A stretch of 32,000 bases of DNA, from positions 1,578,394-1,610,393 of the forward strand of contig NZ_CP061303.1 of NCBI RefSeq assembly GCF_018687695.1, written 5' to 3'. Below, piece after piece: positions 1-30,752 of this stretch (its first letter is position 1; each line of letters opens with the position of its first letter). The notes beneath the pieces were generated by a model. It worked only from the letters and a program-made list of their open reading frames with translations. It was not told where the DNA came from and ran no database searches. The position numbers and the translations under genes are program-made. This stretch comes from Polynucleobacter sp. MG-6-Vaara-E2 (GTDB lineage Bacteria > Pseudomonadota > Gammaproteobacteria > Burkholderiales > Burkholderiaceae).

Positions 1-466
1 TTGCCTGAATGCGAACACTGGATGGCGTAATTTGAACTACCTGACTATCTTTTCCAGAGCCCTTAGTTGGCGCTTGTACTTGTGATGAATCCATTACATC
101 TTTATTTTTTCCTGATTTACCAATAAAGAAAAAAACGGCTACAGCCAAAATAACAATGCCAATAATGATTAAACCCCAAGGTGTGCTTTTCTTTTCTGGT
201 TTAGTAGGTTTAGATTTGATCTCTTCCCTAGCCTTAGGCGCCACCTTTTTATCATCAGATTTATGAGGGCTAGCCACTATGGGGCGAGGTGCATTCGATG
301 CAACTTTTGCAGCACCACAATGCTTACAAAACTTGAAATTGCTAGGGTTTGGATAATTGCATGAGCCGCAGAACTCTTCTTGCGATAAAACCTCTAATTT
401 GCTACCGCAAGACTCACAAAATTTTGCTCCATCTTTGTTGACATGATTACAGTTTTGGCATTTCAT
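1..466 (-). CDS. Partial CDS (C-terminus runs off the window): double zinc-ribbon, single-pass membrane protein
   Basis: Absent from the ORF track because it is open to position 1. Reverse-strand ATG at 464-466 is preceded by GGGAG (474-478) with a 7-nt spacer. It reads MKCQNCNHVNKDGAKFCESCGSKL...FCGSCNYPNPSNFKFCKHCGA (two CxxC...CxxC pairs), then a Lys/Pro-rich linker, then the hydrophobic helix WGLIIIGIVILAVAVFFFIG. Confidence 0.6.
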   Translation of the reverse strand, partial: MKCQNCNHVNKDGAKFCESCGSKLEVLSQEEFCGSCNYPNPSNFKFCKHCGAAKVASNAPRPIVASPHKSDDKKVAPKAREEIKSKPTKPEKKSTPWGLIIIGIVILAVAVFFFIGKSGKNKDVMDSSQVQAPTKGSGKDSQVVQITPSSVRIQA

Positions 467-490
467 CAAGTTACTCCCAAGCAAACATCT

Positions 491-1021
491 TCATTTAAGG
501 TTTTCGCGAGCAGATTCTGAAATCAATGGATCCTCATGCATTGAAAGATCTCGTAATACTTTTTTGGGTGCCCGTCGATTTTGAGCTAGCGCAAGAACAA
601 CAAAGGGGTCACTATTTGAGGCAATGACATCTGCCAGATTTTGAATATCAACTGCTTTAAAAGCCTCAACATCTTGAGCTACAGCTACAGCCAGCTCAGG
701 ATCCCTCTTCATTATTTTTTCTATAATCTCAAGGGTCGCTATTTCCCTAAAAACAGAGTTTCTTAAGAGATTCTTTAGAACAGCAGCAGAATTATCTTCA
801 ATCAATACACGGCAAGAATCCTCGTCAATTTTGTCCTTATAGGCAACTTGCTGACGAACTTCGGCTGATGGGTGCAGAGATGCATATTTGAAAAACCTCT
901 CACTACTCGCTTTGTCTGGATAGTAGTTCGCAATGGTACTTAAGAGCTCGCAGGAAAGAAGGTCTGATAAGACCTCTTTCCCATCCTCAACCACAACCAA
1001 TCGAAACTCAAGCTTCGCCAT
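491..1021 (-). CDS. Helical-repeat (degenerate LRV/HEAT-like) protein, 176 aa; paralogue of the C-terminal domain of the upstream 629-aa protein
   Basis: ORF track. ATG lies 3 nt after the upstream TAA stop. It aligns by eye along its full length with residues ~452-629 of ORF 1025-2914 (KLxFxLVVxDGxKEV; HPxxxVRxxVAYKDKI; VLxNLxR; PKKVLxxL..H.DP). Confidence 0.7.
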   Translation of the reverse strand: MAKLEFRLVVVEDGKEVLSDLLSCELLSTIANYYPDKASSERFFKYASLHPSAEVRQQVAYKDKIDEDSCRVLIEDNSAAVLKNLLRNSVFREIATLEIIEKIMKRDPELAVAVAQDVEAFKAVDIQNLADVIASNSDPFVVLALAQNRRAPKKVLRDLSMHEDPLISESARENLK

Positions 1022-1024
1022 AAA

Positions 1025-2914
1025 TTAGTCTTCTAGACGCTTTTTAGCCTCAGAAGCCACATATGGATCAGAGTGGTTTACCAGCTCTTTAAGGACCTTT
1101 TTGGGGGTGCTGTAGTTACCAGCTAAAGAAGCAAGAATAGATGGATCTTCCATGCTGAGAATAATGGCGCATAACTTACTTGCATCAGCCTGCTGGTATG
1201 AATCAATGTCACCAGCAATATTTTGAGCAATTTCGACATCTAGGTGAATCAAACGCTCTATATCTGCTGCAGACGCATTCTCTTTAAATGCTTCAGTTCT
1301 TACCAGATTTCGCAACACAGGTATTGACTTATCAGTCATCAACAAAGACAGAATTTCTTCAGAAATCTTATCTTTATAAGCAACATTTTCTCTCACCGTA
1401 GAAGCTGGGTGCTTCGCCACCAATGCAAAAAAATCTTTACTCTCTTCTGCATCCTCATAGCTTGAGGTGATACTTGCAACGGTCTCATATGAGAGTGGCT
1501 TTGAAAATACCTCCTTGCCACCATCTTCTACCACTAACTTAAATACTAACTTTGATGACATGTTCATCTCCTTTAGGTTGATCGGTATATCTACTTTGCT
1601 ATCTTTAATACTGCCCAACTCTTCTTCATTAACACTTTCGTTGGGCATTGGCCAGGTTGTTATAAGACTCCACTCATTTGATAGAGCATGTAATACCTGC
1701 TCTACAAATCCATCCGATTGGTATTGCCAAATATTGTCGTATGTCACAGTATTTGCATTTTTCAAATACTTTTTTCCAAAATCCGATACTTGACTACCAT
1801 CATCGTTTTCTTCCCAATCGCTAAAATGACTTCGAACCCCCTGAAGTTCATATAACTTATCGAGATATTTGGCAGGCAGCTCTGTCTCATCTTTTGCTAC
1901 AAGCCCCCTGAATTTACTATCGAGACAGAAAAAACCATCGGAAGAAACGCCCCCGCCTTCGTATCCAAAATATACGCCCACGTAGTCTCCATCTACCTCC
2001 TCATATACTACGTTAGCCCTAATTCTTTGACTTTTTTCGACGGCGATGAAAAACTCATGGCCGCCATTTTCAAAAGCATCCAACTCTTCTTCATCGACGC
2101 CTTCATCGGACTTAGGCCAACTTAACTTTCTTTTTTCCCCTTTAATTTCTTGCTCAGTTGTGTGCATCTCAATACCTGTAATTGATGCACTGCCTTCAGC
2201 AGCCAATGAGGAGTAAATAAGTTTGCAATCGACTATGGCATTTTTTAGATCATTTACATTGCTATATCCATAACCTCCAATTACTTGTATATCCCCAAGC
2301 TTCAACTCCTCTGTACTACCGGCATCGAATAATTCTTCGGAGTCTTTTGAGATATTGGCTACAAATTGAACTCTAGGCATTCGGTTATTGGAAATATTTT
2401 GAACGGAAAGCTTGGCGTAAATATTGATATCGCCTTCAGAATCCGGCTCCGCACGCCAAATTGAACCGCCAATAACTAGAAGCTGATTTTCAATTTCTAG
2501 CCCTGGCAAGGACGTAATTTCGTAAGCTTCTAGAGGAACTGAGTATGAGCCTAACTCCCGCTCTTTAGGAGAGGTAGCCATCACCTTAACTAATGCTTGA
2601 TACTTTTGACGATCACCATTTAAAAGTGCTCCGGCGACCCTCCAGATAGATAGCTCTAATTCAGAGCTATCTCCAGAGGCTATACCCTCCTCCTTGGAAT
2701 TGGACTCACCAATCTGTTGCCCCGCATCATTTAAGACTACGGCACAAAGTTCCAGTGAACTCCAATCATTTTTAGTTTGATTTTCAATACTAATTTTTAG
2801 CGAAACTGTGTAGTCCCCGTACTCATCAGGACCTTCAGCGCTAAATTCTTCTATTTCTGCGCCGAAAAATGGAAGCTGAAATATAGAAGTATCGAAATTT
2901 AAAGATGAAGACAT
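1025..2914 (-). CDS. Multidomain hypothetical protein, 629 aa: two beta-rich N-terminal modules, an acidic middle domain, and a C-terminal helical-repeat domain
   Basis: Long ORF. The N-terminal ~250 aa look like an internal duplication (EFSAEGPDEYGDYTVSLKISIENQT... versus RAEPDSEGDINIYAKLSVQNIS...). The C-terminal 178 aa are paralogous to ORF 491-1021. There is an internal AAGGAG + ATG at the domain boundary (see findings). Confidence 0.8.
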   Translation of the reverse strand: MSSSLNFDTSIFQLPFFGAEIEEFSAEGPDEYGDYTVSLKISIENQTKNDWSSLELCAVVLNDAGQQIGESNSKEEGIASGDSSELELSIWRVAGALLNGDRQKYQALVKVMATSPKERELGSYSVPLEAYEITSLPGLEIENQLLVIGGSIWRAEPDSEGDINIYAKLSVQNISNNRMPRVQFVANISKDSEELFDAGSTEELKLGDIQVIGGYGYSNVNDLKNAIVDCKLIYSSLAAEGSASITGIEMHTTEQEIKGEKRKLSWPKSDEGVDEEELDAFENGGHEFFIAVEKSQRIRANVVYEEVDGDYVGVYFGYEGGGVSSDGFFCLDSKFRGLVAKDETELPAKYLDKLYELQGVRSHFSDWEENDDGSQVSDFGKKYLKNANTVTYDNIWQYQSDGFVEQVLHALSNEWSLITTWPMPNESVNEEELGSIKDSKVDIPINLKEMNMSSKLVFKLVVEDGGKEVFSKPLSYETVASITSSYEDAEESKDFFALVAKHPASTVRENVAYKDKISEEILSLLMTDKSIPVLRNLVRTEAFKENASAADIERLIHLDVEIAQNIAGDIDSYQQADASKLCAIILSMEDPSILASLAGNYSTPKKVLKELVNHSDPYVASEAKKRLED

Positions 2915-3016
2915 GATCGTTTTTATCTTAAGCTAACGTGATTAATTATTATCAAAATTAGAATAATTAAGTATTTTTTTATATAGTACTAGAGTTAAGA
3001 GTTAATCCACAAACAT

Positions 3017-4351
3017 TTAGGCTGCTATTTTCTCGGGGATAACCATATGTTTTACCAATCCATCTAGATCACTCTTTAGTAATAGACGCTTTTCTAGTAA
3101 TCCATCCTTTATAGCAAGCAAAAGTTTTTTGTTTTTGCTTAAGATCAACTTAACAGCCCTATATTGCATTTGTATGAATTTCTTAGCCTCAATTCGATAA
3201 TCCTCAGAGTGCGACTCAAAGCAACCATTCGCAACTACTAATAGGCTGTCACCGTCATACTCATTTATGCCATAGTTAGAGGAAAAGCCATTTTTAGTCA
3301 TCAAATTAAATACCTTCCAAGTTGCCTCCTTAAGATCGCTGTTAGCGCAATCTGCACCAACATTAAGCTCGCCAAGAATTAGCTCTTCGGCTACCCTACC
3401 GGCTAAATCTATTCTGATAGCAATTCGTACTTGTGAAAATGATCTAAATAAACCCCCGCGATATATATGTCTGTAATCTTGAACCATTACTCCAGCCATA
3501 TCCTTAGATGGAATAATGGACACCCAATCCGGAATATTCTCAAAACCTGATTCAGCCATTGCAACTACAGCATGACCTGCTTCATGAGCGGCAATTTGCT
3601 CGGGGTCTGGATAGTCCTGAAAACTCAAGCCCTCCCCAGTGCCATTGATTGCCACTTGAAGCACATCTTGCAGGCCTATCTTTCTCTTTTCCCTAAATGC
3701 CACTCTTTTTAAAGTCTTCTCTAACATTCCAAATCTGCGCTTACTAGCAAAATCTAAACATAGAATGCACCCCAATCTATGCTGGTCATTCAGTAAATCA
3801 TCACTCACTATGTCAGCGCTAAGTTGCTCCAAAAAATCACTTGCGTGAAAATTCGGCTTAGGCGAAGCCCAAAGAATATGGCGATCGAATTTATTTTGAT
3901 AGCGAAAAGCCTCCGCAATCTCTCCAAAAGAGCTGCAGATGCTTGTAATAACTTTTGACGTGCCGTTAATCAAATCCAACACTTCAGAAACAAGCTTCTT
4001 ATTTGATAAATCTTCTTCCGATGGATTTTCTGCTTCTAGCCATCCGCCAGACTCAATAAATATGATTGTGGGTCCATCAGCCTTACTTATTAAATCTTTA
4101 AGGGACTGAAGGCTGTCTTGCTGCACTTCAATAAACTTGGCACCTGTAATGTCGGATACCCACTTTAAAAAATCAAGATAAGCGTCCTTATCTGCAGCCT
4201 CAATCATTAGCCCATTCCCCAATAAGCCCCAGGATAGATCCTGCTTGTTAAATGGATCACATAGAGAGCTAAATTCAGTTAACCACTGTGCCAATGCTGG
4301 CTGACGCTCCCGTAATTTCAAAAACTCTATTTTTTTGGTTAAATTTTTCAT
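3017..4351 (-). CDS. Soluble FtsH-like peptidase (M41 domain intact) fused to a degenerate AAA+-like N-domain
   Basis: HEAGH zinc motif at residues 256-260 (nt 3572-3586). The surrounding sequence is FtsH-like (VSIIPSKDMAGVMV; LAGRVAEELILGE..GA..DL..AT). The N-domain keeps the AAA+ layout (TIIFIESGG where FtsH has IIFIDEID), but the Walker A position reads GLLGNGLMIEAADKD with no GK[ST]. No TM helices are visible. Confidence 0.8.
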   Translation of the reverse strand: MKNLTKKIEFLKLRERQPALAQWLTEFSSLCDPFNKQDLSWGLLGNGLMIEAADKDAYLDFLKWVSDITGAKFIEVQQDSLQSLKDLISKADGPTIIFIESGGWLEAENPSEEDLSNKKLVSEVLDLINGTSKVITSICSSFGEIAEAFRYQNKFDRHILWASPKPNFHASDFLEQLSADIVSDDLLNDQHRLGCILCLDFASKRRFGMLEKTLKRVAFREKRKIGLQDVLQVAINGTGEGLSFQDYPDPEQIAAHEAGHAVVAMAESGFENIPDWVSIIPSKDMAGVMVQDYRHIYRGGLFRSFSQVRIAIRIDLAGRVAEELILGELNVGADCANSDLKEATWKVFNLMTKNGFSSNYGINEYDGDSLLVVANGCFESHSEDYRIEAKKFIQMQYRAVKLILSKNKKLLLAIKDGLLEKRLLLKSDLDGLVKHMVIPEKIAA

Positions 4352-4363
4352 TATTAACCCTAA

Positions 4364-4684
4364 TTATTGTTTGTCGTTATAGATAGATTCACAAGAATCT
4401 TTTGTATTCATCGCGATGGTTAAGCAATCTTCCATAAACTCTTTTTTATGACCGATTGCTTGCGTCAATGCTAAGGAATCATCTGAATTTTTTGCAGCCA
4501 CCTCTAATACCGCATTGTGAGAAAAAATTGCACTCATGCAAAAGATGCCAAATACTCCAAGGGCAAGTACTTTCCAGAAATAAAACAGCACAACACCTAA
4601 GACGATTGCGGCTATAGCATAAAAAACAAATGAATCAAGGGTTGAGCTTTGAACATGTAGAACATCACTTACAAATGTATACAT
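4364..4684 (-). CDS. Small membrane protein (2 predicted TM helices), 106 aa
   Basis: ORF track. Hydrophobic stretches FVFYAIAAIVLGVVLFYFW and VLALGVFGIFCMSAIF. Purine-rich GGTGGGGA lies just upstream of the ATG. It sits 12 nt upstream of the protease gene. Confidence 0.6.
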   Translation of the reverse strand: MYTFVSDVLHVQSSTLDSFVFYAIAAIVLGVVLFYFWKVLALGVFGIFCMSAIFSHNAVLEVAAKNSDDSLALTQAIGHKKEFMEDCLTIAMNTKDSCESIYNDKQ

Positions 4685-4692
4685 ATCCCCAC

Positions 4693-4920
4693 CTATCTAT
4701 AGATATCGCAATAAACATCCACTGGAACTACAACATTCCCAAATTCAGTTCTTTGCGAGACATACTGGACTGTGGGTTTTAACTTGGCAGAGACGCATTC
4801 CCGTGCTGCCTGGATTACTTCAACGCGGCTCATCTGCTCTGGACTCTTAAACCCAACCACTTTAGGGCTGGAACATGCCGCCAATGAACCGCATAGCAAC
4901 AGGAAATAAAGGTATTTCAT
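4693..4920 (-). CDS. Small lipoprotein, 75 aa
   Basis: Signal peptide plus lipobox MKYLYFLLLCGSLAAC|SS. GGAG lies 5 nt upstream of the ATG. It is the first gene of the minus-strand operon. Confidence 0.7.
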   Translation of the reverse strand: MKYLYFLLLCGSLAACSSPKVVGFKSPEQMSRVEVIQAARECVSAKLKPTVQYVSQRTEFGNVVVPVDVYCDIYR

Positions 4921-5186
4921 ACTTACTCCTATTTGTTTATCCAGTTTTCTTTATACAGATCTACAAGCTCACACGATGAGCCCAATATGAGTTAGTCAAT
5001 TTATTTTTATAAATGAGGCTGACATTGAATTTCAATCACTATAAATTTCATCGCATCAAAAACAGATGAGAGTTATCCCCAATTGTTTTTTATAAAATTT
5101 GCAGGAATAATTCGTAATAGAAATTAATTGTTTTTTACCCCTCTGGCAGTTATATTGACAATTCACCCGTCACCTGAAAAGCTGCC

Positions 5187-6695
5187 TTGCAACTACTCTC
5201 CAAAAGCAAAATCATCTCAGGCATCCAGTGTCATAAAAAGCTCTGGCTGGAAACCCATGTCAAGCAAGATATATTGGAGTCTCATCTTTTTGCACTTGGA
5301 AATCGCTTCGGAGATTTCGCCAGAACACATTATGGTGACGGCGTTAATTTAGATGGCAAGAGTAACAAAGATGAAATTTTTAATAACACAAATTTCGCTT
5401 TATTAGATCCCAAAGTTAATGTTATCTATGAAGCTGCATTTCAATTCGAAAATGTATTAGTAAGGGTAGATGTATTAAAGCGTGACAAAGATGGCTGGGA
5501 AATGATTGAAGTCAAATCATCTAAAGAAGCCAAGCAGCATCACCTAAATGACATTGCTTCCCAAGCCTATGTAGCACTGGGATGCGGCCTCAAATTAAAT
5601 TCAATGAAGATTGCCCATATTAATAAAAATTTTCTTTATAAAGGTGATGGAGACTATTCAGGTCTGCTAGTTGAGGCGGACGTCACAAGTGAGGCAATCG
5701 AAAGACTATCGGATGTAAAGACTTGGATCAGTGATTTACTCCCCATAGTTCAACCAGATTCACCTCGGCCTACAGAAGATATGGAGGACTTAAAATGCAA
5801 AACCCCGTATCCCTGTCAATTTCTTCCGCAATGCTCTGCAGAGCTGCCTCAACTGGCGGAAGTTCCAATCAGCATTCTCCCCAATACCGGGAAAAAACTG
5901 GCTGAAAAATGGGGCAAAGAAAAAATCTATGATTTGAGAAACCTACCGGATGGAGCGCTTACAAATGAACGTCACGAAATCATCAGACAAGCGCATCAAT
6001 CGAATACTCCTTATATTAGTAAGGAGATGGTTAAAAAAGTGCGCTCACTACCAGGGCCTTACTTTTTCATGGACTTTGAAACGGTAATGCAAGGTGTCCC
6101 ACTCATTCCCAATACTAAGCCTAATGATGCAGTTCCTTTTCAATGGAGCGTTCATTCTATTAAAGACCTAGCCAATACAACGGGACTTGATGATGGAAAG
6201 GCATTCTTAGACTTTTTAAGTCCGACCTTATTTAGGGATTTTCTAATAAGCCTGATTAGTGCCCTAGGTGAGTCAGGCACTATATTTGTACACCACAAAT
6301 CAACAGAAATTAAAGCTTTACTTTATCTTGCAGCCCAAAAGCAATGTGAAGATCTTAATGAGGCTGTTGAGAAAATTATTCTCAGAATTGAAGATACGCT
6401 AGATTTAGTAAGAGATGGAATGTATTTCCCAGAGATGGGACTATCCGAAGGAAGCACTTACTCTATTAAGACTATTACCAAAGTCATTCCAACCTCGGTT
6501 GACTACCACGAAGATGGGGAACTGGGATCTGGGAACGATGCTCAACTGATTTGGTTCAAATGCACTGATTTAAAGCATAGGCTATCTGAAAGTGAAATTC
6601 AGGCATTGAAAAAAAATCTTCTCAAATATTGTGCAAAAGATACGTTAGCATTAGTTGATTTAGTTCGCTTCATTCATACACAACCAATTCATTAA
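5187..6695 (+). CDS. DUF2779-type protein: N-terminal Cas4/RecB-like PD-(D/E)xK nuclease with a 4-Cys cluster, plus a C-terminal RNase H-fold (DEDD-like) exonuclease domain
   Basis: TTG start. The N-terminus LSKSKIISGIQCHKKLWL is typical of DUF2779. Motifs: VRVDVL...EMIEVKSS (D95, E108, K110); Cys15 plus C204-x5-C210-x5-C216; second half FFMDFETV (D296/E298) and YCAKDTLALVDL. Confidence 0.8.
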   Translation: MQLLSKSKIISGIQCHKKLWLETHVKQDILESHLFALGNRFGDFARTHYGDGVNLDGKSNKDEIFNNTNFALLDPKVNVIYEAAFQFENVLVRVDVLKRDKDGWEMIEVKSSKEAKQHHLNDIASQAYVALGCGLKLNSMKIAHINKNFLYKGDGDYSGLLVEADVTSEAIERLSDVKTWISDLLPIVQPDSPRPTEDMEDLKCKTPYPCQFLPQCSAELPQLAEVPISILPNTGKKLAEKWGKEKIYDLRNLPDGALTNERHEIIRQAHQSNTPYISKEMVKKVRSLPGPYFFMDFETVMQGVPLIPNTKPNDAVPFQWSVHSIKDLANTTGLDDGKAFLDFLSPTLFRDFLISLISALGESGTIFVHHKSTEIKALLYLAAQKQCEDLNEAVEKIILRIEDTLDLVRDGMYFPEMGLSEGSTYSIKTITKVIPTSVDYHEDGELGSGNDAQLIWFKCTDLKHRLSESEIQALKKNLLKYCAKDTLALVDLVRFIHTQPIH

Positions 6696-6705
6696 AAGAG
6701 TCAAT

Positions 6706-7329
6706 ATGCCCAAGTCAAATGCCGCCCCCGACATATCGAAATATATCTTCTTAGATGATGATGCGATTAGATTCGTCGTTTATAGAATTGATCTTGTGCC
6801 AACAAAAGATCTTTATACAAACTTAGAAGCAATGGTCGGCAAAGAAGCAGCTGAAGTTGAATATCAAGCCGTGATTGATGAAGATGCCCCTCCTCCGTCA
6901 TTTGTAGTTGGAATGGGGTCAACTGGCGGTGGGATTTACGATACAGTTTATGCACTTATGTACGCAGAGCAAACATGCTTCATCGGTAATGATATTTCTC
7001 TGGGCGGGGAAAAATCTGTTTTATATAGCGCAGCTGGTTATAGCTACACAAGTAGTAAAGAGCCCGAAATTGAAGATGATGAGATCATTTTGAATATTGA
7101 TCCACAAAATGAAAAAATTATTCAAGTAATTATTGATTCATTCAATGCAAACTTTGCACTAGACTCTACTGACGATGATGATGAATTTATTCAACCTATT
7201 GTTGACCTAGGAAAAGTACTTAAGAAGTTTAAAAAGTTTGATAATGTTTACACATATGACTGGGATGACTTAGATGATTTATTAGGGCTATCTAAAGTAT
7301 GGCCATTCACGCTAACTTTTGAAGATTAA
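6706..7329 (+). CDS. Acidic hypothetical protein, 207 aa
   Basis: ORF track. It starts 10 nt after the preceding stop and has strongly acidic tracts (DSTDDDDEF, DWDDLDDLL). I recognise no motif. Confidence 0.65.
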   Translation: MPKSNAAPDISKYIFLDDDAIRFVVYRIDLVPTKDLYTNLEAMVGKEAAEVEYQAVIDEDAPPPSFVVGMGSTGGGIYDTVYALMYAEQTCFIGNDISLGGEKSVLYSAAGYSYTSSKEPEIEDDEIILNIDPQNEKIIQVIIDSFNANFALDSTDDDDEFIQPIVDLGKVLKKFKKFDNVYTYDWDDLDDLLGLSKVWPFTLTFED

Positions 7330-7347
7330 TAACCTGTAGGAATAATC

Positions 7348-8454
7348 ATGGCTAAAGCAAAAATTAACTTGTCAATTGCAAAGAATCCCTCTACCCCAGT
7401 TGAAATATTGAAGCTACTCGCTAAAGAAAAAGATGAGGGAGTACGTTCTGATGTAGCAAGCAATCCATCAACGCCCTTGGAAATTCTAAAGAATTTAGCT
7501 AAGGATGGGAGTGAAGATGTCATTTATAGCGTGGCTATGAACCCTAATGTAAGCGATGATCTTATAAAGATCTTAATGGGTGAAGAATATGGCAAACGAG
7601 GATTAGCTGAAAATCCACGAACTAATACTGCTACTTTAGATAAGCTCGCAAAAGATGAAAGTCACAAAATTCGCAACTTAGTCGCTAATAATCCCTCCAC
7701 AAGAATTGAAACACTAATTGAGCTATCAAAAGATGAAAGTGACTGGGTTAGATCAGGGGTTGCATCAAACCCCTGCACCCCAGAGGACATACTAATTAAA
7801 TTAGCATCAGAAAAAGATGAGGATCGAATAAGAGCTTATGTTGCCCAAAATGAGTCTGCGCCAACTGCTGCTCTAGACTTACTCATTAAAGATCCCGAAG
7901 AAAGCACAAGAGAGTACACGGCTAGACACCCCAACCTATCCGTTAGCTTAATAGCTGAATGTACCGCCAAAAAAGGAAAGGACGCCAGTCTAAAGGAATA
8001 TTCAGCCCTTAATCCTTCCTTGCCGACCGAACTCATTTTGACTTTATCTAAAGATAAAAATAGTTCCGTACGAGCTTCCATAGCTTCGAACCCATCTACG
8101 CCGCTCGAAATCCTTGAGACCTTATTGAAAGATAAAGATGAGGATGTAAGACGAAACATATGCCAGAACCCAAACGCAAATGAAGTTCTATTCAATGCCT
8201 TAGCCAAAGATAAAGAGGATTCCGTCAGATGGTTTTTGGCAATGAACAAAGAATTAGCAAGTTCTATTCTAGAAACACTATCAAAGGATGGATCGGCCAG
8301 AGTAAGGCAAAGCGTAGCAAGCCACCCAAACTCTAGCCCAGAGATTCTTGAGGCACTATCTAAAGATAAGGATGAGTCCATAAGGGATGGCGTGGCCAGC
8401 AACCCAAACACACCTATTGGAATTATTAATGAATATGCTGGACTCAAAAAATAG
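7348..8454 (+). CDS. Leucine-rich-repeat-variant (LRV)/HEAT-like repeat protein, 368 aa
   Basis: 13 full units plus 1 partial unit of ~24-26 aa, of the form NPSTPxEILxxLAKDKDEDVRxxVAS. This matches the LRV repeat consensus (PF01816-type). It starts 18 nt after the preceding stop. Confidence 0.85.
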   Translation: MAKAKINLSIAKNPSTPVEILKLLAKEKDEGVRSDVASNPSTPLEILKNLAKDGSEDVIYSVAMNPNVSDDLIKILMGEEYGKRGLAENPRTNTATLDKLAKDESHKIRNLVANNPSTRIETLIELSKDESDWVRSGVASNPCTPEDILIKLASEKDEDRIRAYVAQNESAPTAALDLLIKDPEESTREYTARHPNLSVSLIAECTAKKGKDASLKEYSALNPSLPTELILTLSKDKNSSVRASIASNPSTPLEILETLLKDKDEDVRRNICQNPNANEVLFNALAKDKEDSVRWFLAMNKELASSILETLSKDGSARVRQSVASHPNSSPEILEALSKDKDESIRDGVASNPNTPIGIINEYAGLKK

Positions 8455-9271
8455 GATGCATAGTATTGCCGAATTAAAAGAATATCTTCTTTATTTAAAG
8501 GCTAGTCGAAATACTAGATATGGGGCTCTTGGCGAAAAAATCTTTAGCCACCATATGTCTAAGTCCTATAAAGTTGAGAAACTACATAAGCATGGGGCAG
8601 ATTTTTTAATTGATGGAAAAGATCGGGTGGATGTCAAAACCCCTTTAATGCTAGATAAGAAATTTGGAGCAACTTTTACCAAGATTAGCAAAAACCAACA
8701 GGCCCCTAATACTGCCTATGCATATGTTTTGCTATTAGATGATATGGTTACCATATACCTAGCCCAGCATTTAAGCGAGCCAGTTCACATTGCTAATATC
8801 AGCTGGGAAGATGCGCTAGTAATTTTTAATACAGAAAATATTAAAGTTATAGCGCCAAAGAACTTTACTTCAGAACAATTAATTGCCGATTCGGTAATAG
8901 ATGACTTAGAGGATTGGCTTGCCATCCAATTTCATAAAAAAGCAAAGTTTGTAACTAGGCATAATAAAAAAACGCAAGATAGTATGTGCAAGAATGGCTG
9001 GGGTCCCGAAGCCTTCTTCCATGACCCCAAACAGAATAGAGGTAATGTTGACCTAGTAGTACTCATATTTTTCGATGGGGGGAAGGTTTATGACATATTC
9101 TCCTATCCAATATCTGAGCATGGCAAAATTCATTTTACAGATAAAAAAGTTGGTCTAAATTTAAGTAAAAGAAAAACCTTTTCTCCAAATCTACTATCAA
9201 GCAGGTATAAATTTAAAAGTATTGCTCAATTTAAGAAGGAAGTTGGTGATAGGTTCTTCAATCCTAGCTAA
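8387..9271 (+). CDS. Hypothetical protein with a PD-(D/E)xK-like motif
   Basis: The motif HGADFLIDGKDRVDVKT (D...DxK) follows a GEKIFSHHM helix, which is a restriction-endonuclease-fold pattern. The start is ambiguous: in-frame ATGs at 8387, 8429, 8435 and 8456. The upstream gene stops at 8452-8454, so the true start is probably 8429-8456. Confidence 0.6.
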   Translation: MAWPATQTHLLELLMNMLDSKNRMHSIAELKEYLLYLKASRNTRYGALGEKIFSHHMSKSYKVEKLHKHGADFLIDGKDRVDVKTPLMLDKKFGATFTKISKNQQAPNTAYAYVLLLDDMVTIYLAQHLSEPVHIANISWEDALVIFNTENIKVIAPKNFTSEQLIADSVIDDLEDWLAIQFHKKAKFVTRHNKKTQDSMCKNGWGPEAFFHDPKQNRGNVDLVVLIFFDGGKVYDIFSYPISEHGKIHFTDKKVGLNLSKRKTFSPNLLSSRYKFKSIAQFKKEVGDRFFNPS

Positions 9272-9402: not shown

Positions 9403-9423
9403 AGCGTTACTTAAAGTAACGCT
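9403..9423. repeat. Copy 1 of the repeated palindrome AGCGTTACTT-A-AAGTAACGCT
   Basis: Perfect 21-bp palindrome with an odd centre (central A, i.e. opposite orientation to copies 2 and 3). It lies in intergenic DNA between convergent genes. Confidence 0.85.
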
Positions 9424-12346: not shown

Positions 12347-12367
12347 GGCGTTACTTTAAGTAACGCC
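12347..12367. repeat. Copy 2 of the repeated palindrome (GGCGTTACTT-T-AAGTAACGCC)
   Basis: Perfect palindrome in the 56-nt gap between ORF 12379-12789 and ORF 11462-12322. Confidence 0.85.
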
Positions 12368-16203: not shown

Positions 16204-16641
16204 ATGAGCACACTAAATTCACTTAAATTAGTAGCCGTTATAAAACCAGCTAAGTTACCACCAGTTGTCCAAAGAAGAAATAAGCTATCCGATAAGATCT
16301 GGGAGCAGATCCAATTGGCGGAAGCTAAAAGCAATGGAGGCACATATGCTCCACTAAAATCCAAACGCCTTAAAGATCTAGAGGGTAATATCAAGCTGTT
16401 AGAGGTACCCAAGCGTATTAAACCCTGGTGGTTTACTGCCCCAAATGGCAAAGTCTGCTTGATACTGCGATACGGATCCAAAGTGCTTGAAATAGCACAG
16501 GGCAAATCTGCTATTGAACTAGATAAGCCCGCAGAACTTATTCCAACATTACAAAAGATTAAGACTGCGGTTGAAGCAGGAGAACTAGATCACTTAATTA
16601 ATGCTGCAACTGAAGCGGTAAGAATGGGATTTAAACATTAA
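16204..16641 (+). CDS. Hypothetical protein, 145 aa
   Basis: AAGGAA lies 6 nt upstream of the ATG. The composition looks coding-like, and the antisense ORF 16161-16505 is judged to be a shadow. Confidence 0.7.
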   Translation: MSTLNSLKLVAVIKPAKLPPVVQRRNKLSDKIWEQIQLAEAKSNGGTYAPLKSKRLKDLEGNIKLLEVPKRIKPWWFTAPNGKVCLILRYGSKVLEIAQGKSAIELDKPAELIPTLQKIKTAVEAGELDHLINAATEAVRMGFKH

Positions 16642-17116: not shown

Positions 17117-17137
17117 AGCGTTACTTTAAGTAACGCT
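17117..17137. repeat. Copy 3 of the repeated palindrome (AGCGTTACTT-T-AAGTAACGCT)
   Basis: Perfect 21-bp palindrome, 9 nt beyond the stop of ORF 17146-17469, in intergenic DNA between convergent genes. Confidence 0.85.
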
Positions 17138-17516: not shown

Positions 17517-18173
17517 ATGTCCAAAACCATTATTTTCGATACCGAAGCTACAGGCATTAAAGAACCCGTATTAATAGAAGCTGCTTGGGTTGAGCTTGAA
17601 TCTATTGAGCCCTTTACTGTTACCAACCCTTTTGTACAGCGCTATAACCCTGGTAAACCCATTACCCTTGGTGCACTAGCTACTCATCACATCATGGATG
17701 AAGAATTGGTTAATTGCCCACCCGCAGCTAGCTTTACATTGCCCGGTCATGTGGACTACATCATTGGGCATAACGTGGACTTTGACTGGGAAGTGATTGG
17801 TAAACCCGAAATCAAACGTATCTGCACACTAGCTCTAGCCCGCAAGCTTTGGCCTGATTTAGATAGCCATAATCAAAGTGCTCTCATGTATTACTTGGAA
17901 CGCGATACAGCACGTGAGCAATTACGTAACGCACATTCGGCTATTGCAGATGTGGGTATTTGCGCTGTGATCCTAGATCACATTTGCCAAGAGCTAGACA
18001 TCAAAACTATTGAAGATTTATATGCTGAATCCGAGAAAGCTAGAACCCCAACAACGATGCCATTTGGTAAACATAAGGGCATGTTGTTATCAGATGTACC
18101 TAGTGACTATAAACAGTGGCTGCTGACTCAAGGGGATATTGATCCATACCTACGGAAGGCTTTGGGTGCTTAA
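17517..18173 (+). CDS. DnaQ/ExoX-like DEDDh 3'-5' exonuclease with a C-terminal DUF3820-like tail
   Basis: Exo I is IIFDTEATG, Exo II is GHNVDFDW, and Exo III is HSAIADV (H-x4-D). The C-terminal MPFGKHKGMLLSDVPSDYKQWLL resembles DUF3820. Confidence 0.85.
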   Translation: MSKTIIFDTEATGIKEPVLIEAAWVELESIEPFTVTNPFVQRYNPGKPITLGALATHHIMDEELVNCPPAASFTLPGHVDYIIGHNVDFDWEVIGKPEIKRICTLALARKLWPDLDSHNQSALMYYLERDTAREQLRNAHSAIADVGICAVILDHICQELDIKTIEDLYAESEKARTPTTMPFGKHKGMLLSDVPSDYKQWLLTQGDIDPYLRKALGA

Positions 18174-18174
18174 T

Positions 18175-19899
18175 TCATTGAAATCCATCTTTAATAATTT
18201 CTATGGATTTAGTTGAAGCAACTACCGAAAGTAAAGTTTTCGCCCTGGAAATGCCAACATAAATTAATTCTGTTTCTTTGCTATCAAAGACTTCATCACC
18301 AACCCATAAAATTACTGCGCTGGACTCTAATCCTTTAAACCGATAAACGCTATCTACCAATACCTGATTGGATCGCCTGGCATGATTCCCGAATGACAAC
18401 TTGACTCCATGCAGACTTGCTTCATGCTCTAATGCCTTATAAGCCATCTCCTTATCTTGCCCAGTAATAAGAATAACTATATCCACAGGTTTAATAGCAT
18501 CATCAGATGTCCATTTTGCTAATGTATTAAGTATCTCTTTAACCTGTGAATCTTGATCATTTATAGCTAATAATTGCGCATTGGGGCCCTGTAACTCGGG
18601 CTCATCCACGACCTCGCCTTTATAAAAGTTATACGCCAACCTATGAATTGGAATAGTATTTCTGCAGTTTGCAGTCAAATGATATGGGGCCTCGGTAACC
18701 GGTAAATTCCCATGTCTTTTATATATCTCTTGGTTTTGATCGATAAAAATATAGAGATAACTTTTATTCACATCCTTAAGAAGCTCTTCTATTCCAAACC
18801 AATATTCATCACTAAAATCTTGGGCCTCATCAATCACAATTGCATCAAATTTTTCATCTAATAATTCATTAGAGAGGGCTAGTGCGTATGGCATCTGGAC
18901 ACCGTATAAGTGAAAACTTGAGTTTCCTGGGTATGCTTCTGCTGCCTCTTTTAACAAGTCCCGTCCTGTGCTTCCTTTTGCCTGTCTAATTCTTCGGTCA
19001 CATAATTGATGAAAATCCAATACGGCCAGCAAAGGTTGATCTTGTAATGCAAGAGCCAATGAATCAGCTAAAGGTCGGTTGTAACAAAGTAGAAGTGTTT
19101 TTAACCCGTTACTAGCAAAATACTTTGCCTTCTCAACTGCAATTAATGTTTTTCCCGTTCCAGCGCCACCAGAAATAACAGCCCGCGTTCTCCCACCAAT
19201 AATGCGTAGCACTTTTGCTTGATTATTGGTCAACCGAATTCTTTGTACTTCCGCATCATCAATGGTCGCCACAAATGCCGGCCTCACCTCAATCGGTTTC
19301 GTCAAAAATTTCTCAAGAATTTTGACTCCCTGGGAGCCTAATGGGGTTTCTCCGTTCTGACGCCAGAATTTAATTAATCTATCTAACCATGATGTAAGGC
19401 TTTTCAAATCTACTGAAATACCAATAAGCTCTCGTGGACGCTCTGGGCCGACAATATTTGCTGAATCGGCAATATCAGGAAAAAATACGCTATGTCCGAG
19501 CGAGACGCGCTCACCCTTCCATTGTCTCCATTCGGGACTTCCATTCAATTGATCAAGCAAAGCATGACGCTCACTAGATGCTTGTCTAAATGGGTCCTTT
19601 ATTTCATGCTGATAGCCATTACGATCTTTCGAGGACCATTTTCCATTGGCGGGGTCAAAAGAAATACCCCCGCCTTTTACCTCCACTACATAAATGCCCG
19701 CAGTTGGTGTAAGGATAATGAAATCAGCCTCACCTTCTTTTAATCTTCCTCGTGCGTCTTTATAAAGCCAACCTGCGCTATGAATCACCACAAAGTCTGA
19801 AGATAATTGATCGCGGCATGCCTCATAAAATCGCGCCTCAGCACGTGATTTAACTGCCGATAATTGATCGCCAGTAAGGAGCGGAATCATGCGAGCCAT
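18175..19899 (-). CDS. NERD-domain nuclease-like + SF1 (UvrD/RecD-like) helicase fusion, 574 aa
   Basis: NERD domain: FYEACRD...EADFIILTPTAGIYVVEVKG (D59, E73, K75). Helicase motifs: Walker A GGAGTGKT (K250), Walker B AIVIDEAQDF (D357/E358), VYRFKGLESSAVIL, LIYVGISRAKTLL. The ATG is 2 nt after the stop of the upstream giant ORF. Confidence 0.9.
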   Translation of the reverse strand: MARMIPLLTGDQLSAVKSRAEARFYEACRDQLSSDFVVIHSAGWLYKDARGRLKEGEADFIILTPTAGIYVVEVKGGGISFDPANGKWSSKDRNGYQHEIKDPFRQASSERHALLDQLNGSPEWRQWKGERVSLGHSVFFPDIADSANIVGPERPRELIGISVDLKSLTSWLDRLIKFWRQNGETPLGSQGVKILEKFLTKPIEVRPAFVATIDDAEVQRIRLTNNQAKVLRIIGGRTRAVISGGAGTGKTLIAVEKAKYFASNGLKTLLLCYNRPLADSLALALQDQPLLAVLDFHQLCDRRIRQAKGSTGRDLLKEAAEAYPGNSSFHLYGVQMPYALALSNELLDEKFDAIVIDEAQDFSDEYWFGIEELLKDVNKSYLYIFIDQNQEIYKRHGNLPVTEAPYHLTANCRNTIPIHRLAYNFYKGEVVDEPELQGPNAQLLAINDQDSQVKEILNTLAKWTSDDAIKPVDIVILITGQDKEMAYKALEHEASLHGVKLSFGNHARRSNQVLVDSVYRFKGLESSAVILWVGDEVFDSKETELIYVGISRAKTLLSVVASTKSIEIIKDGFQ

Positions 19900-24529: not shown

Positions 24530-25108
24530 TTAATCCCAATCTCCCGTTTCCTCCATCCCCTCCATGTCCTTGGGGCAAATTGGGGGGCCTAAAATAAGAT
24601 GCCTTTTCAACATCACCACCTCATATCCGCACTTAGAGCATTTTGCACCTGGTCTTTTGGGGGCTTTTTGCATAGTTCTGACTGGCAAGCTCAATCTACC
24701 ATGAGGGAAAGTGCCTAACTTATCCACAATCCTAATTAAATCCTGCTTTAGCCAATCACCAGCACCAGCGCTTCTCATCGGCCCCTTTAGCCCAACATCC
24801 AGTGCAATTTTTCTAAAATTTTCACCATGTCCACTTTGGCAATCATCTACAGCATGTACTAATTCATGCACCAAGGTATCTAAGAAGTCTAACGGCGTCT
24901 GAAGATGTGGTGCTATAAAGATTTGATTAATCCCGTCTACAGCAGATCTTGTAGACCAGCACTGACCTAGGTGCCGTCCTTTTCCGCCAGAACTTGGAAA
25001 CCCAACCGATACCTTCACTATTGGTATTGAATATCCAGCCTTATCAAATATTGGCACTATATGATCTACAGCGCGCATTAACCATTGCTCTCGATTTATT
25101 TCACCCAT
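24530..25108 (-). CDS. SprT-like zinc metalloprotease with a C-terminal zinc-ribbon, 192 aa
   Basis: HExxH motif in LVHELVHAV followed by GHGENF (SprT-like pattern). The C-terminus has CSKCGY...ICPKD. It lies 53 nt upstream of the giant ORF on the same strand. Confidence 0.75.
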   Translation of the reverse strand: MGEINREQWLMRAVDHIVPIFDKAGYSIPIVKVSVGFPSSGGKGRHLGQCWSTRSAVDGINQIFIAPHLQTPLDFLDTLVHELVHAVDDCQSGHGENFRKIALDVGLKGPMRSAGAGDWLKQDLIRIVDKLGTFPHGRLSLPVRTMQKAPKRPGAKCSKCGYEVVMLKRHLILGPPICPKDMEGMEETGDWD

Positions 25109-27416: not shown

Positions 27417-29324
27417 TTACTCATAAAAAATCTGCCCGCGCATATCTTTAATAAAGACTTGATAGAAGTCTTTCCAGTTCTGCAGCTCTTCTGGCTGGCA
27501 GACTGCTCCCGGTCTTTGAATGGCTAGCTTTCTAATAACAAAGATATTGTTCTTTACTTCGTTATAGGTTGCTTCGTATTCAATGCCGGCTTTTTTGTAG
27601 CTTACATTAGGTGGAATACGCGTTACCTTGGTGTTGCTTGGAAATCTGATTTGGTAAGCCTCTCCTATCATTCTGGTGGAACAGACATATGGAACTGTAA
27701 ATTTCTCAGGCGGCCTATCACTGGCAATGGCAGCTAACTCTCCAGGCGCTAAGCCAATAGGCACTGTCATTGCTCCCGGTCCTGGCACATTCGCAATGGC
27801 GTCTAAGGTGAACTCAGTGTCGGTTGTAAATGGTTTATCTAGATCATAGACATAACTAGTAGTGATCTTGCCTTCGCCTGTTTGCCTAAATTTAGCTAAC
27901 TGGTTTTTAACTAGCTTATCTGAGTAGGATGTTTCAGCACCCTCGTACTTATAACGAGCACTGATTGCAGCACTTCCAAAATACATAGTGTGTGCCTTAC
28001 CGGTAATCCGCCCATCTTTCTCAATCTGCATAGAGATACCAGTAGCCATATCACTATCTTCTTTCTTAGGCTTGGGTGTGCGCCCTACCTTTGCTAATTT
28101 AGTGAGTAGTACAGGCTTATCCATCTCATCCGAGGGCAACGTGCCGTAGCTCGCCATCTCATCAGTCGAGTCTAGATATAGATTCCAGGCTGGGATATAG
28201 GTGATGACATGATTAAAAGGCCCCAAGACTGGGTATTTAGGGAGTACATAAGCATTGCCTGAGTTAATTAATGCGCTGGTTGCATCGATGCCCTTAGCTG
28301 CCAATAAAGTAATTAAGAGTGCGTTGTGATCTTTGCAGTCACCATAGCGATTTTTCAGCACGCTATTGGCATCGTGTGGCACGATCCCACCATCAGCAAG
28401 GTAGATAGCTACATAACGAATGTTTCTGGCTACCCAGTGATAGATCGCCTTGGCCTGTTCTTTTTTTAGGTCGAGTTTTGGATTATTTTGAACCTTCTTG
28501 TCTAGCCCTTTAGTGATCTCATCAGCTTGTTTCTGAATTTCTGGGGTGATGATGAATTTACCTTTAATGCGCTCTTCATATGCCTTGGCAAAAGCCTCTT
28601 GACTTGGGAAGCTGGAAATATAAATATGAGGAGCATAGTCGTTACTAGAGACTTGATATAGCTCTTTTTTCTTCATCTTGAGGTTTTCATATGTGTAGCT
28701 CACATGACGTACGCCACCAACCACTTCATCTCTCGTTTGTTTAACGTCTTTAATATCGGTATAGAGCTTTAAGTCTTCCGGATAACTGAGGTTGTACTCA
28801 TAAGACTTCACCTCCACATTAGGCGAGAAGATCAGCCTGGTATAGAAATAACCTGGCAATAGTGGCTTGTAGGTTGTTAGCCTCGTCTTGTAATAGGTTT
28901 TAGAACCCGGCGTTACCTTTGGGAAGATGATGATCTTGTGCTTTTGATCGGAGAACATTGCTGCGCCAGAGCTATTGTCATCCTCTACTGTGCGTATGGC
29001 ATTGGCGGCTACCGGGATTTTTTCTCCCTTAGGGGTGATTGTGTAGGCATCAAGCACTTCTAGCTTGGATAGCGTGGAGTTATATGGCAAGTCGGCTTGT
29101 GACTCAGAGTCAACGACTAACTGCGATTTCACCAAGGTAGTGAGTTCATCAATCTCAACAACCGTACCATCGGCCTGAATAGTTTCTGTGATGATGGCTC
29201 TTTCAACAGCAGAAAGTGATTCGAGCTCACCTCTGCCTGCGCTGGTTATGCCAACATTGGCGAGCAATAAGAATCCCAGAAGGACTGCCGCAAGACTACT
29301 AATTGATTGAATTGCGAATTTCAT
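27417..29324 (-). CDS. Exported DUF3857/transglutaminase-like protein, 635 aa
   Basis: Signal peptide MKFAIQSISSLAAVLLGFLLLANVGITSA. Transglutaminase-core Cys in RYGDCKDHNALLITLL, with downstream FNHVITYIP and YLDSTD (Cys-His-Asp triad pattern). Confidence 0.85.
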   Translation of the reverse strand: MKFAIQSISSLAAVLLGFLLLANVGITSAGRGELESLSAVERAIITETIQADGTVVEIDELTTLVKSQLVVDSESQADLPYNSTLSKLEVLDAYTITPKGEKIPVAANAIRTVEDDNSSGAAMFSDQKHKIIIFPKVTPGSKTYYKTRLTTYKPLLPGYFYTRLIFSPNVEVKSYEYNLSYPEDLKLYTDIKDVKQTRDEVVGGVRHVSYTYENLKMKKKELYQVSSNDYAPHIYISSFPSQEAFAKAYEERIKGKFIITPEIQKQADEITKGLDKKVQNNPKLDLKKEQAKAIYHWVARNIRYVAIYLADGGIVPHDANSVLKNRYGDCKDHNALLITLLAAKGIDATSALINSGNAYVLPKYPVLGPFNHVITYIPAWNLYLDSTDEMASYGTLPSDEMDKPVLLTKLAKVGRTPKPKKEDSDMATGISMQIEKDGRITGKAHTMYFGSAAISARYKYEGAETSYSDKLVKNQLAKFRQTGEGKITTSYVYDLDKPFTTDTEFTLDAIANVPGPGAMTVPIGLAPGELAAIASDRPPEKFTVPYVCSTRMIGEAYQIRFPSNTKVTRIPPNVSYKKAGIEYEATYNEVKNNIFVIRKLAIQRPGAVCQPEELQNWKDFYQVFIKDMRGQIFYE

Positions 29325-30750: not shown

Positions 30751-30752
30751 GA

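Follow-up and report, generated by a model that had tools for sequence, protein, structure and literature searches.

The 32,000-nucleotide (nt) stretch of the Polynucleobacter sp. MG-6-Vaara-E2 genome analyzed here (contig NZ_CP061303.1, positions 1,578,394 to 1,610,393; referred to as the window) begins with an operon encoding a 444-amino-acid (aa) protease. Judged by its sequence and predicted fold, the enzyme is a cytoplasmic, zinc-competent, nucleotide-blind derivative of FtsH that has kept its AAA+ tier as a fold only. Canonical FtsH is membrane anchored, and its proteolysis needs ATP hydrolysis by the AAA+ ring. To our knowledge, FtsH is regarded as the one universally conserved membrane AAA+ protease, whose proteolysis is considered strictly coupled to ATP-driven unfolding. 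Here, we describe an uncharacterized family of M41 proteins in which the loss of the ATPase motifs is the common state, and we hold, with moderate confidence, that the window protease is an ATP-independent, FtsH-derived processing enzyme working within a mobile conflict module (defense or counterdefense).

When the protease was scanned against Pfam, Peptidase_M41 (PF01434) matched residues 251-430 with 63.1 bits (cutoff, 29.9), covering profile positions 9-189 of 191, whereas PF00004 (AAA) gave no match in the 444-aa protein. The NCBIfam models of FtsH aligned with the C-terminal third only, scoring 61.5 bits against 600 (TIGR01241) and 38.4 against 1008 (NF008004). The zinc-binding and catalytic motif HEAGH (residues 256-260) is invariant in 54/54 family members and in all aligned true FtsH sequences, and the third zinc ligand, Asp339, corresponds to the Asp in the G-A-x-N-D segment of FtsH (Thermus thermophilus FtsH, 2dhr). 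H256, E257, H260, and D339 are all invariant in the 54 sequences and aligned with the FtsH ligands. Both the profile match and the zinc ligands place the protein in the M41 family.

The region preceding the M41 domain was then compared with known structures. In a phmmer search of the PDB, the best matches were FtsH M41 domains, and the alignments with AFG3L2 and FTSHI2 reached back to residues 91-110; thus, the N-terminal half represents no new domain but an AAA+ module that has diverged. An AlphaFold2 (AF2) monomer model of the protease (54 family members) gave a pLDDT of 87.5 and a pTM of 0.80, and Foldseek aligned it over ~450 columns with the entire cytosolic parts of AFG3L2 (6nyy; TM score, 0.72), YME1 (6az0; TM score, 0.69), and FtsH (range, 0.69 to 0.72). 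In this model, an AAA+ alpha/beta Rossmann-like core and a helical lid precede the M41 domain, which identifies the predicted structure as an AAA+ fold.

In the alignment with true FtsH, the Walker A sequence GPPGTGKT lies opposite AADKDAYL and is replaced by a pseudo-P-loop (EAADKDAY, residues 51-58) with an acidic E-x-x-D-x-D pattern, in which E51 is found in 41/54 members, D54 in 43/54, and D or E at position 56 in 46/54. The Walker B remnant reads IIFIESGG where FtsH has IIFIDEID; position 100 is Glu in 42/54 members, and the catalytic Glu that follows has become Ser, Pro, or Gln. The sensor-1 Asn is lost as well (T-S-I-C-S-S), and an 11-residue deletion at precisely the junction of beta2 and alpha2 has taken out the substrate-threading pore-1 loop (M-Y/F-V-G), such that strand beta2 (72-76) leads directly into helix 78-90 in the AF2 model. 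From the second region of homology, F155-D156-R157 is kept, and an arginine one position off the FtsH Arg finger (R150) is present in 48/54 members. Residues W23, W41, G45, P94, W104, F155-D156-R157, and R216 of the AAA+ module are invariant in the family. If it faces the retained arginine, the acidic pseudo-P-loop might keep a ring assembled in the absence of nucleotide. The protein has neither a signal peptide nor a transmembrane or other hydrophobic segment. With the anchor, Walker A, Walker B, and the pore loop missing and the curated scores out of reach, the protease is not a canonical FtsH. A preliminary description, made from the letters of this DNA and its reading frames, had listed a retained HEAGH, a lost P-loop, IIFIESGG in place of IIFIDEID, and no transmembrane helix, all of which were confirmed. 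Its reading of a protease-competent, ATPase-dead, soluble FtsH relative is one on which sequence, profile, and predicted fold agree.

These features extend beyond the window. A word-indexed search retrieved 58 clusters of 445- to 500-aa proteins that match PF01434 only and stand clear of true FtsH (E of ≤1e-22 versus ≥4e-12). A profile search of 1.84 billion cluster representatives returned 253 proteins at an E of ≤1e-30, of which the best 150 all matched from end to end, and the family size is ~250 clusters at 50% identity. A P-loop at the correct place (G-x4-G-K-[ST]) occurs in 0 of 202 family members, compared with a Walker A motif in 58 of 62 true FtsH hits, which, together with the Pfam result, settles the check on Walker A loss that the preliminary description had proposed. 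HExxH is kept in 201 of the 202, and a transmembrane-like segment was predicted for 6 of them versus 50 of the 62 true FtsH hits. These data indicated that the motif losses are, at the level of sequence, the defining state of the whole uncharacterized family. None of its members carries an informative name, and a full-text literature search found no paper on ATPase-dead bacterial FtsH homologues; the protein could not be assigned to a named family, as the preliminary description had said.

Among the best 80 matches in GTDB species representatives, one was a true member (locus L014; L numbers denote individual loci), the search pattern being common to FtsH, and this count is a lower bound and no proof of rarity. 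A hand-made degenerate DNA pattern gave 101 matches; 12 true members were present among the 85 loci examined, and the rest were chance matches. A phage origin was considered and rejected, as IMG/VR gave only generic FtsH-like genes (best E, 4e-15) and, in the PHROGs, the protease matched a single FtsH-like family without assigned function, whereas its partners matched none. A plasmid origin was likewise rejected, for tblastn against PLSDB gave only ordinary FtsH-like genes at 24-28% identity.

The protease resembles FtsH, Yme1, and AFG3L2 in its two-tier fold (AAA+ alpha/beta core and lid, then M41), HEAGH, the third Asp, and F-D-R, but it differs from them in lacking the transmembrane anchor, periplasmic domain, Walker A, Walker B Glu, sensor-1 Asn, and pore-1 loop. 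It is also encoded in mobile islands, whereas FtsH is an essential core gene. In protease-switch immune modules such as CalpL-CalpT-CalpS, a protease that derives from an AAA+ protease family but works without ATP cuts a partner encoded with it, and an output is released. The resemblance is conceptual only: the protease family is another one, and neither a SAVED/CARF or cyclic-nucleotide sensor nor a sigma/anti-sigma pair is present here. Closest in working logic is LonC, a Lon homologue of Meiothermus taiwanensis whose AAA-like module is degenerate and which is devoid of ATPase activity (PMC3391209, PMC13069640), that is, an AAA+ protease that keeps a ring-forming AAA-like tier and an active protease while its ATPase is lost. 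However, LonC has a Ser-Lys S16 peptidase instead of a zinc M41 domain, is unrelated in sequence and fold, and is not known from conflict islands. The chloroplast FtsHi pseudoproteases of the Ycf2-FtsHi motor, which are among the structural and sequence matches (8xku, 8xks), are also FtsH paralogues that have lost one of two activities. They are, however, the mirror image, since their ATPase motifs are retained and it is the HExxH zinc site that is gone (PMC8197885), whereas in the window family the zinc site is invariant and the ATPase dead. Finally, the defense system Gao_Iet pairs the FtsH-derived IetA with proteolysis by the S8 protease IetS. IetA carries PF06480, PF00004, and PF17862 (PMC10924106), i.e., an active AAA+ domain and an FtsH extracellular domain without M41, and its protease is a separate subtilase.

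The protease gene is the third of six open reading frames at positions 1-4920, all on the minus strand and separated by gaps of 8, 12, 102, 3, and 24 nt (Table 1), in full agreement with the six same-strand genes, their order, positions, and gaps of 3-102 nt, in the preliminary description. A consensus scan detected no terminator-like site in these gaps. The lipoprotein gene is the first of the transcription unit and is preceded by a ribosome-binding site (aggag); the copy in the sister locus L001 is 100% identical. The 106-aa protein with two predicted transmembrane segments has a ~50-aa tail containing two Cys residues and is 94% identical to the L001 copy; it gave no match in Pfam, PHROG, or PADLOC. 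A holin/spanin-like lysis cassette formed by these two genes was considered and found no support (0 PHROG and 0 Pfam matches). At the other end, the gene that is cut by the window edge had been taken for a double zinc-ribbon single-pass membrane protein, and this is what it encodes: a double zinc ribbon (DZR; PF12773, E of 8.5e-12, 45.5 bits versus a cutoff of 27.3; Zn_Ribbon_1 also matches), a Lys/Pro-rich spacer, and then one transmembrane (TM) segment (~residues 97-117). The full-length protein in sister contigs has 328-336 aa, with tetratricopeptide repeats (TPR) at the C terminus (DZR-TM-TPR).

Table 1. Features annotated in the window (residue numbers refer to the encoded protein)
Feature	Position	Strand	Remarks
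DZR + single-TM protein, 5' part (155 codons)	1-466	-	Open at window edge
176-aa protein	491-1021	-	Stand-alone paralogue of the 629-aa C-terminal domain
629-aa multidomain protein	1025-2914	-	AF2 model
629-aa protein, beta-hairpin + LRV-like helical-repeat domain, residues 454-628	1031-1555	-	AF2 model
629-aa protein, lineage-specific insertion in linker, residues 269-419	1658-2110	-
629-aa protein, two beta-sandwich domains, residues 17-238	2201-2866	-	AF2 model
444-aa soluble pseudo-AAA+ / M41 zinc metalloprotease	3017-4351	-	Identical to WP_215379286.1 ("hypothetical protein")
Asp339, third zinc ligand	3335-3337	-
HEAGH motif, residues 256-260	3572-3586	-
Recombination breakpoint in protease gene	3600-3750		~Codons 200-250, AAA lid/M41 boundary
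Degenerate AAA+ module, residues 1-237	3640-4351	-	Foldseek; no PF00004
Walker B remnant, residues 96-103	4043-4066	-	Catalytic Glu lost
Pseudo-P-loop, residues 51-58	4178-4201	-	Replaces Walker A
106-aa two-TM protein	4364-4684	-	Hydrophobic segments ~19-37 and 39-57 (hydropathy scan)
75-aa lipoprotein	4693-4920	-	Signal MKYLYFLLLCGSLAAC, lipobox L-A-A-C, Ser at +2
Divergent intergenic region, protease operon versus DUF2779 operon	4921-5186		266 nt, contains ribosome-binding site
502-aa DUF2779 protein	5187-6695	+	PF11074, E 3e-19; weak Cas4/RecB matches
207-aa protein	6706-7329	+	Always after DUF2779 in close clade
368-aa LRV/HEAT-like repeat protein	7348-8454	+	PF01816, E 2.9e-36
294-aa protein	8387-9271	+	Kept with DUF2779 operon in close relatives
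Short tyrosine recombinase, 212 aa	14299-14937	-
DEDDh exonuclease	17517-18173	+	QSregVF_b tail
NERD-UvrD helicase	18175-19899	-	PADLOC "RTasNERD-Hel," 1.5e-72
Tiamat TmtA homologue, 1524 aa	19902-24476	-	PADLOC E 3.6e-209; Pfam sacsin, NOV_C

Past the left edge, the operon could be followed in two near-identical metagenomic contigs, L208 and L227, which belong to the lineage of the window (629-aa protein, 99.5% identical; 176-aa protein, 100% identical). As read from these contigs, the operon runs on beyond the window, where the check proposed earlier on its leftward end had pointed, into a 336-aa DZR-TM-TPR protein, a 677-aa cytoplasmic DZR protein (DZR-677), and then two YbjN-like genes.

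The two proteins encoded directly downstream of the protease are related to each other. In the AF2 model, the 629-aa protein consists of two N-terminal beta-sandwich domains, a linker (residues 253-456) with pLDDT below 50 that is predicted to be disordered, and a C-terminal domain made of a beta-hairpin and LRV-like helical repeats. Foldseek with the beta-sandwich domains gave only generic tandem Ig-, arrestin-, and transglutaminase-barrel-like matches of low TM scores; the N-terminal domain is, however, 27% identical (E, 3e-18) to residues 83-317 of DZR-677, a tandem beta-sandwich region. Homologues of the 629-aa protein form 13 clusters only, and most have 475-483 aa and are without the ~150-residue insertion in the linker, for which no homologue was detectable. 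In the gene, the insertion is bracketed by a 57-nt direct repeat (positions 1598-1654 and 2063-2119; 70% identity), both copies of which code for an acidic linker sequence, "WP..E.V.EEEL"; the repeat could be a trace of the origin of the insertion, or it could be a site for cleavage or recognition that is present twice.

The 176-aa protein is 40% identical (E, 8e-39) to residues 454-628 of the 629-aa protein, confirming that the two are paralogues, as the preliminary description had proposed. A profile search revealed that it belongs to a discrete family of 176- to 183-aa proteins in 61 clusters. Neither it nor the 629-aa C terminus matches LRV (PF01816) directly in Pfam, and BLASTP between the 176-aa protein and the LRV protein was not significant. 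The relationship emerged with profile methods only: hhalign against neighboring LRV proteins gave a probability of 83% (E, 9e-6), an iterated hidden Markov model arrives at LRV proteins, and family member P0355 has a precomputed PF01816 match. In a high-GC organism (L201), the gene that immediately follows that of a 33%-identical protease encodes a 36%-identical homologue of the 176-aa protein.

Gene neighborhoods were compared across ~13 distinct clade contexts, with protease identities ranging from 24 to 97%. Where the protease is 83-97% identical (L001-L003, L178, L208, L227, and L245), the lipoprotein, two-TM, and protease genes occur in the same order. At 64-66% protease identity (L013 and L259), the lipoprotein, two-TM, and 176-aa genes are missing, and the first two were found only where the protease is at least 83% identical. 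Conserved in close relatives only, the six-gene set is a recent, lineage-specific arrangement, to which the lipoprotein and two-TM genes were added lately. On the synteny question raised by the preliminary description, retention of the set was seen in close relatives and not across the family. The notion of a fixed six-gene operon had to be abandoned, since the lipoprotein and two-TM genes share this narrow range and the 629-aa protein is confined to its 13 clusters. A natural deletion variant was also observed (L260, 7573-8497). Behind its protease, only 220 aa from the N terminus of the 629-aa protein and then a YbjN-like fragment remain, and the 176-aa, DZR-TM-TPR, and DZR-677 genes are missing.

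Comparison with L001 revealed a recombination breakpoint within the protease gene. Nucleotide identity is 93-98% from 7329 down to ~3730, i.e., from the 207-aa gene into the first ~200 protease codons, and beyond ~3730 it falls to 83% and then 62%, remaining at 53-77% through the 629-aa, 176-aa, and DZR genes. At the protein level, protease residues 1-250 are 92-98% identical and residues 251-444 are 68-88% identical; for the partner proteins, the values are 100%, 94%, and 96% upstream versus 75-79%, 61%, and 47% downstream. Since the breakpoint falls at the boundary of the AAA lid and M41, the catalytic domain and the downstream proteins have been exchanged and diverge as one block, which would be expected if the partners interact.

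The operon composition and its tight spacing would suit a clade-specific envelope-signaling cascade of regulated proteolysis, akin to anti-sigma-factor cascades or CalpL-CalpT. In such a cascade, the periplasmic TPR of DZR-TM-TPR would sense an envelope signal, helped by the lipoprotein and the two-TM protein, the cytoplasmic zinc ribbons would recruit the protease, and a cut in the 629-aa linker or the DZR tails would free the LRV-like domain. The predicted topology agrees with this proposal, with the DZR protein N-in, its Lys/Pro-rich tail before the transmembrane segment, and the TPRs after it; P0222 is a protease with a fused zinc ribbon, the linker of the 629-aa protein has a disorder prediction and carries the duplicated "WP..E.V.EEEL" sequence, and the domain putatively released exists free as the 176-aa protein. 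Nevertheless, we consider this explanation unlikely: the lipoprotein and two-TM genes are gone at 64-66% protease identity, DZR-TM-TPR occurs in the close clade only, most family members have soluble neighbors only, no DNA-binding or sigma-like output protein was found, and most of these genes have disappeared from the deletion variant L260.

The partners that recur most widely lie outside the six-gene frame of the preliminary description, namely, the DUF2779 nuclease, LRV proteins, and YbjN-like proteins. DUF2779 comprises a Cas4/RecB-like PD-(D/E)XK domain and a DEDD-type exonuclease region (PMC3985635, PMC13621843). It is the most widely co-occurring neighbor: 8 of the ~13 contexts have it no more than 10 kb from the protease. 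Its gene directly adjoins the protease operon and is transcribed away from it in the window, L001, L013, and L259, and it shares the strand of the protease in L007, L010, L012, L205, and L237. In L174, it follows downstream on the other strand, transcribed toward the protease operon. LRV/HEAT-like neighbors were found in the window, L005/L006, L012, L013, L205, L237, and L259, and in L178 an LRV protein takes the slot of the 629-aa gene directly after the protease. An N-terminal YbjN domain is fused to 25 of 202 proteases (P0218: PF10722, E of 2.5e-9), while L001, L208, and L227 carry YbjN-like genes as separate members of the operon, and L012 has a stand-alone one too. Zinc ribbons are a fourth recurrent partner: P0222 combines a Zn ribbon, YbjN, pseudo-AAA, and M41 in one protein, and small proteins with CxxC pairs, zinc-ribbon-like in appearance, adjoin the protease in L012 and L004. 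In L014 the protease has no such company, and several contexts lack all four partners. These data indicated that the association with partners is recurrent, not obligatory.

Two further neighbors were observed. A soluble family of ~155-164 aa ("TWKPEFGSY...GLYGFGH") adjoins the protease, upstream or downstream, in clades C and D and in L178 (L004, 9122-9589; L005, 5795-6289; L178, 3853-4326; L205, 2945-3433); the one member scanned (L004) had no Pfam match. In the two most distant clades, homologous acidic proteins of ~105 aa abut the protease (L008, 9688-9996; L010, 4754-5077), upstream in one and downstream in the other, with a PF06189 5'-nucleotidase nearby in both; these may represent a different minimal partner set.

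The heterogeneity of these neighborhoods, and L014, in which the protease stands alone, would fit a stand-alone housekeeping or quality-control peptidase, a LonC-like ATP-independent cage for unfolded polypeptides or peptides whose neighbors are unrelated cargo, and LonC provides a precedent (PMC3391209, PMC13069640). We regard this as distinctly unlikely. Members of the family occur only in islands and mobile contexts, and one was among the best 80 GTDB representative matches, a distribution not expected of a housekeeping gene; the YbjN and Zn-ribbon fusions, with stand-alone counterparts in operons, imply dedicated partners; and the M41 half co-diverges with the downstream genes.

The window is a low-GC (0.35-0.41) island in the chromosome of a freshwater Polynucleobacter and a bona fide defense island, containing, side by side, the Tiamat TmtA homologue, the NERD-UvrD helicase, and the DEDDh exonuclease listed in Table 1. 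A tyrosine recombinase 97% identical over the covered part to that of the window is found in L001, ~9.5 kb upstream of the protease and with different intervening genes, which suggests an integrase-associated island with swappable cargo. At the other end of the window, positions 27417-29324 (-), 29332-29664 (-), and 30248-31178 (+) correspond to 771-4386 of L004 and comprise DUF3857-transglutaminase, HAD_SAK_2, and three small genes at 55-81% identity; the GC content of this part is 0.43-0.45. Since the DUF3857-transglutaminase and HAD_SAK_2 flank genes border different cargo in L004, this region appears to be where a hotspot of variable content meets conserved chromosomal genes. Relatives of the protease adjoin BREX; Type ISP restriction-modification with McrBC and WYL; GmrSD, SIR2, and TIR-STAND; or a caspase-like protein with DUF4407, and others lie inside an integrase-PrimPol-DUF3987 element. 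A known defense system was ruled out, for PADLOC-DB v2, Gao_Iet included, gave no match for the six operon proteins and only a weak Cas4 match for DUF2779 (E of 0.003 or weaker). The preliminary description had offered either a regulated-proteolysis or signaling module or a defense/abortive module; what the neighborhoods add to this proposal is context, i.e., Tiamat, NERD-UvrD, and an integrase in the window and BREX and other systems near relatives.

Several other features of the island were recorded. A 19-nt perfect palindrome, GCGTTACTTTAAGTAACGC, occurs in three copies (9404-9422, 12348-12366, and 17118-17136) in or near intergenic positions; these may be repetitive extragenic palindrome (REP)-like elements, terminator hairpins, or recombination sites. 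The island also encodes a DUF6641 protein (E, 2e-20), at 16204-16641 (+), and the gene beside Tiamat, at 24530-25108 (-), has a weak, below-cutoff match to SprT-like metallopeptidases (E, 9e-4). Two small overlapping reading frames at 31181-31549 (-) and 31524-31877 (-) encode paralogues of 122 and 117 aa (33% identity; E, 7e-14).

In an element-borne counterdefense or host-manipulation role, the protease would destroy host defense or regulatory proteins on entry, with the repeat proteins (LRV here and Ank/LRR elsewhere) as target adaptors. Integrases adjacent in the window, L001, L012, and L174, RdgC and PcfJ neighbors in L008, ADP-ribosylglycohydrolases in L007 and L010, and a fast-diverging downstream half suggestive of an arms race all point this way, but IMG/VR, PLSDB, and the PHROGs hold no homologue beyond generic FtsH-like matches, and the contexts are chromosomal and island-like, unlike plasmid or phage leading regions, which makes this role quite improbable.

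We return to an ATP-independent processing protease within a mobile conflict module. A conflict role (defense against phages or mobile elements, or counterdefense) is the most likely one because of the integrase-bearing and defense islands that carry the module and the fast-evolving, mosaic substrate-side half. Presumably without means of unfolding or translocating substrates, the protease should cut accessible segments, so that exposed or disordered segments would be cleaved without ATP. The enzyme is probably ring forming, by analogy with FtsH, whose soluble domains, and even the isolated protease domain, are still hexameric (reviewed in PMC9020784). Its dead AAA+ tier would then be a gate, or else a surface on which partner proteins dock. 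Likely clients or adaptors would be the LRV-like repeat proteins, i.e., the 176-aa protein and the C-terminal domain that the 629-aa protein carries on its long, predicted-disordered linker, together with the zinc-ribbon proteins (DZR-TM-TPR and the off-window DZR-677) and the YbjN-like chaperone-fold proteins. The 629-aa protein, as modeled, looks suited to a substrate role: its head is folded, its linker is of low confidence, and its LRV-like tail, folded too, has a free-standing paralogue. The module would be larger than six genes, continuing past the left edge into the DZR-TM-TPR, DZR-677, and two YbjN-like genes, and probably takes in the divergent operon of DUF2779, the 207-aa, LRV, and 294-aa genes (5187-9271). 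Limited proteolysis would then turn a sensing event into the release or activation of an effector. The envelope proteins peculiar to this clade suggest that, in Polynucleobacter, an envelope input has been connected to the module.

Several observations weigh against this interpretation. The sample of contexts is small (~13 clades) and skewed to freshwater metagenomes. No neighbor is universal across the contexts; in L014 the protease stands alone, flanked by oppositely oriented genes, and neither DUF2779 nor LRV was found within the captured flanks of L004, L008, L175, and L215. Tiamat lies ~15 kb from the protease operon, beyond the integrase, so that proximity to the defense island amounts to guilt by association, and there is no precedent for a defense role, since the PADLOC models match no operon protein. 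Ring formation is assumed to have been carried over from FtsH, and the choice of clients and adaptors follows from co-encoding and fusion. The lipoprotein and the two-TM protein are lineage specific, and an envelope-signaling story would hence apply at most to this clade.

A more far-reaching version of the conflict module, which we put forward only tentatively as possible, makes the pseudo-AAA M41 protease the core of an undescribed mobile multigene immune or counterimmune system, built from a protease switch, LRV-like, YbjN-like, and zinc-ribbon proteins, and the DUF2779 dual nuclease. In that version, repeat or adaptor proteins would recognize an invader, a tethered partner would be cleaved, and nuclease or membrane effectors would thereby be released or activated, while the acidic pseudo-P-loop facing the retained arginine would lock the ring permanently in a "nucleotide-bound-like" state.

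Taken together, these results suggest that, across a whole family, the M41 chamber has been turned into an enzyme that works without ATP: anchor, nucleotide site, and threading loop are gone from the sequences, and the FtsH architecture and zinc site are kept. The family offers a natural system for the structural contribution of the AAA+ tier without ATP hydrolysis. With its islands, its recurrent or fused partners, and its fast, mosaic substrate-side half, it is a candidate for a new protease-switched defense or counterdefense system.

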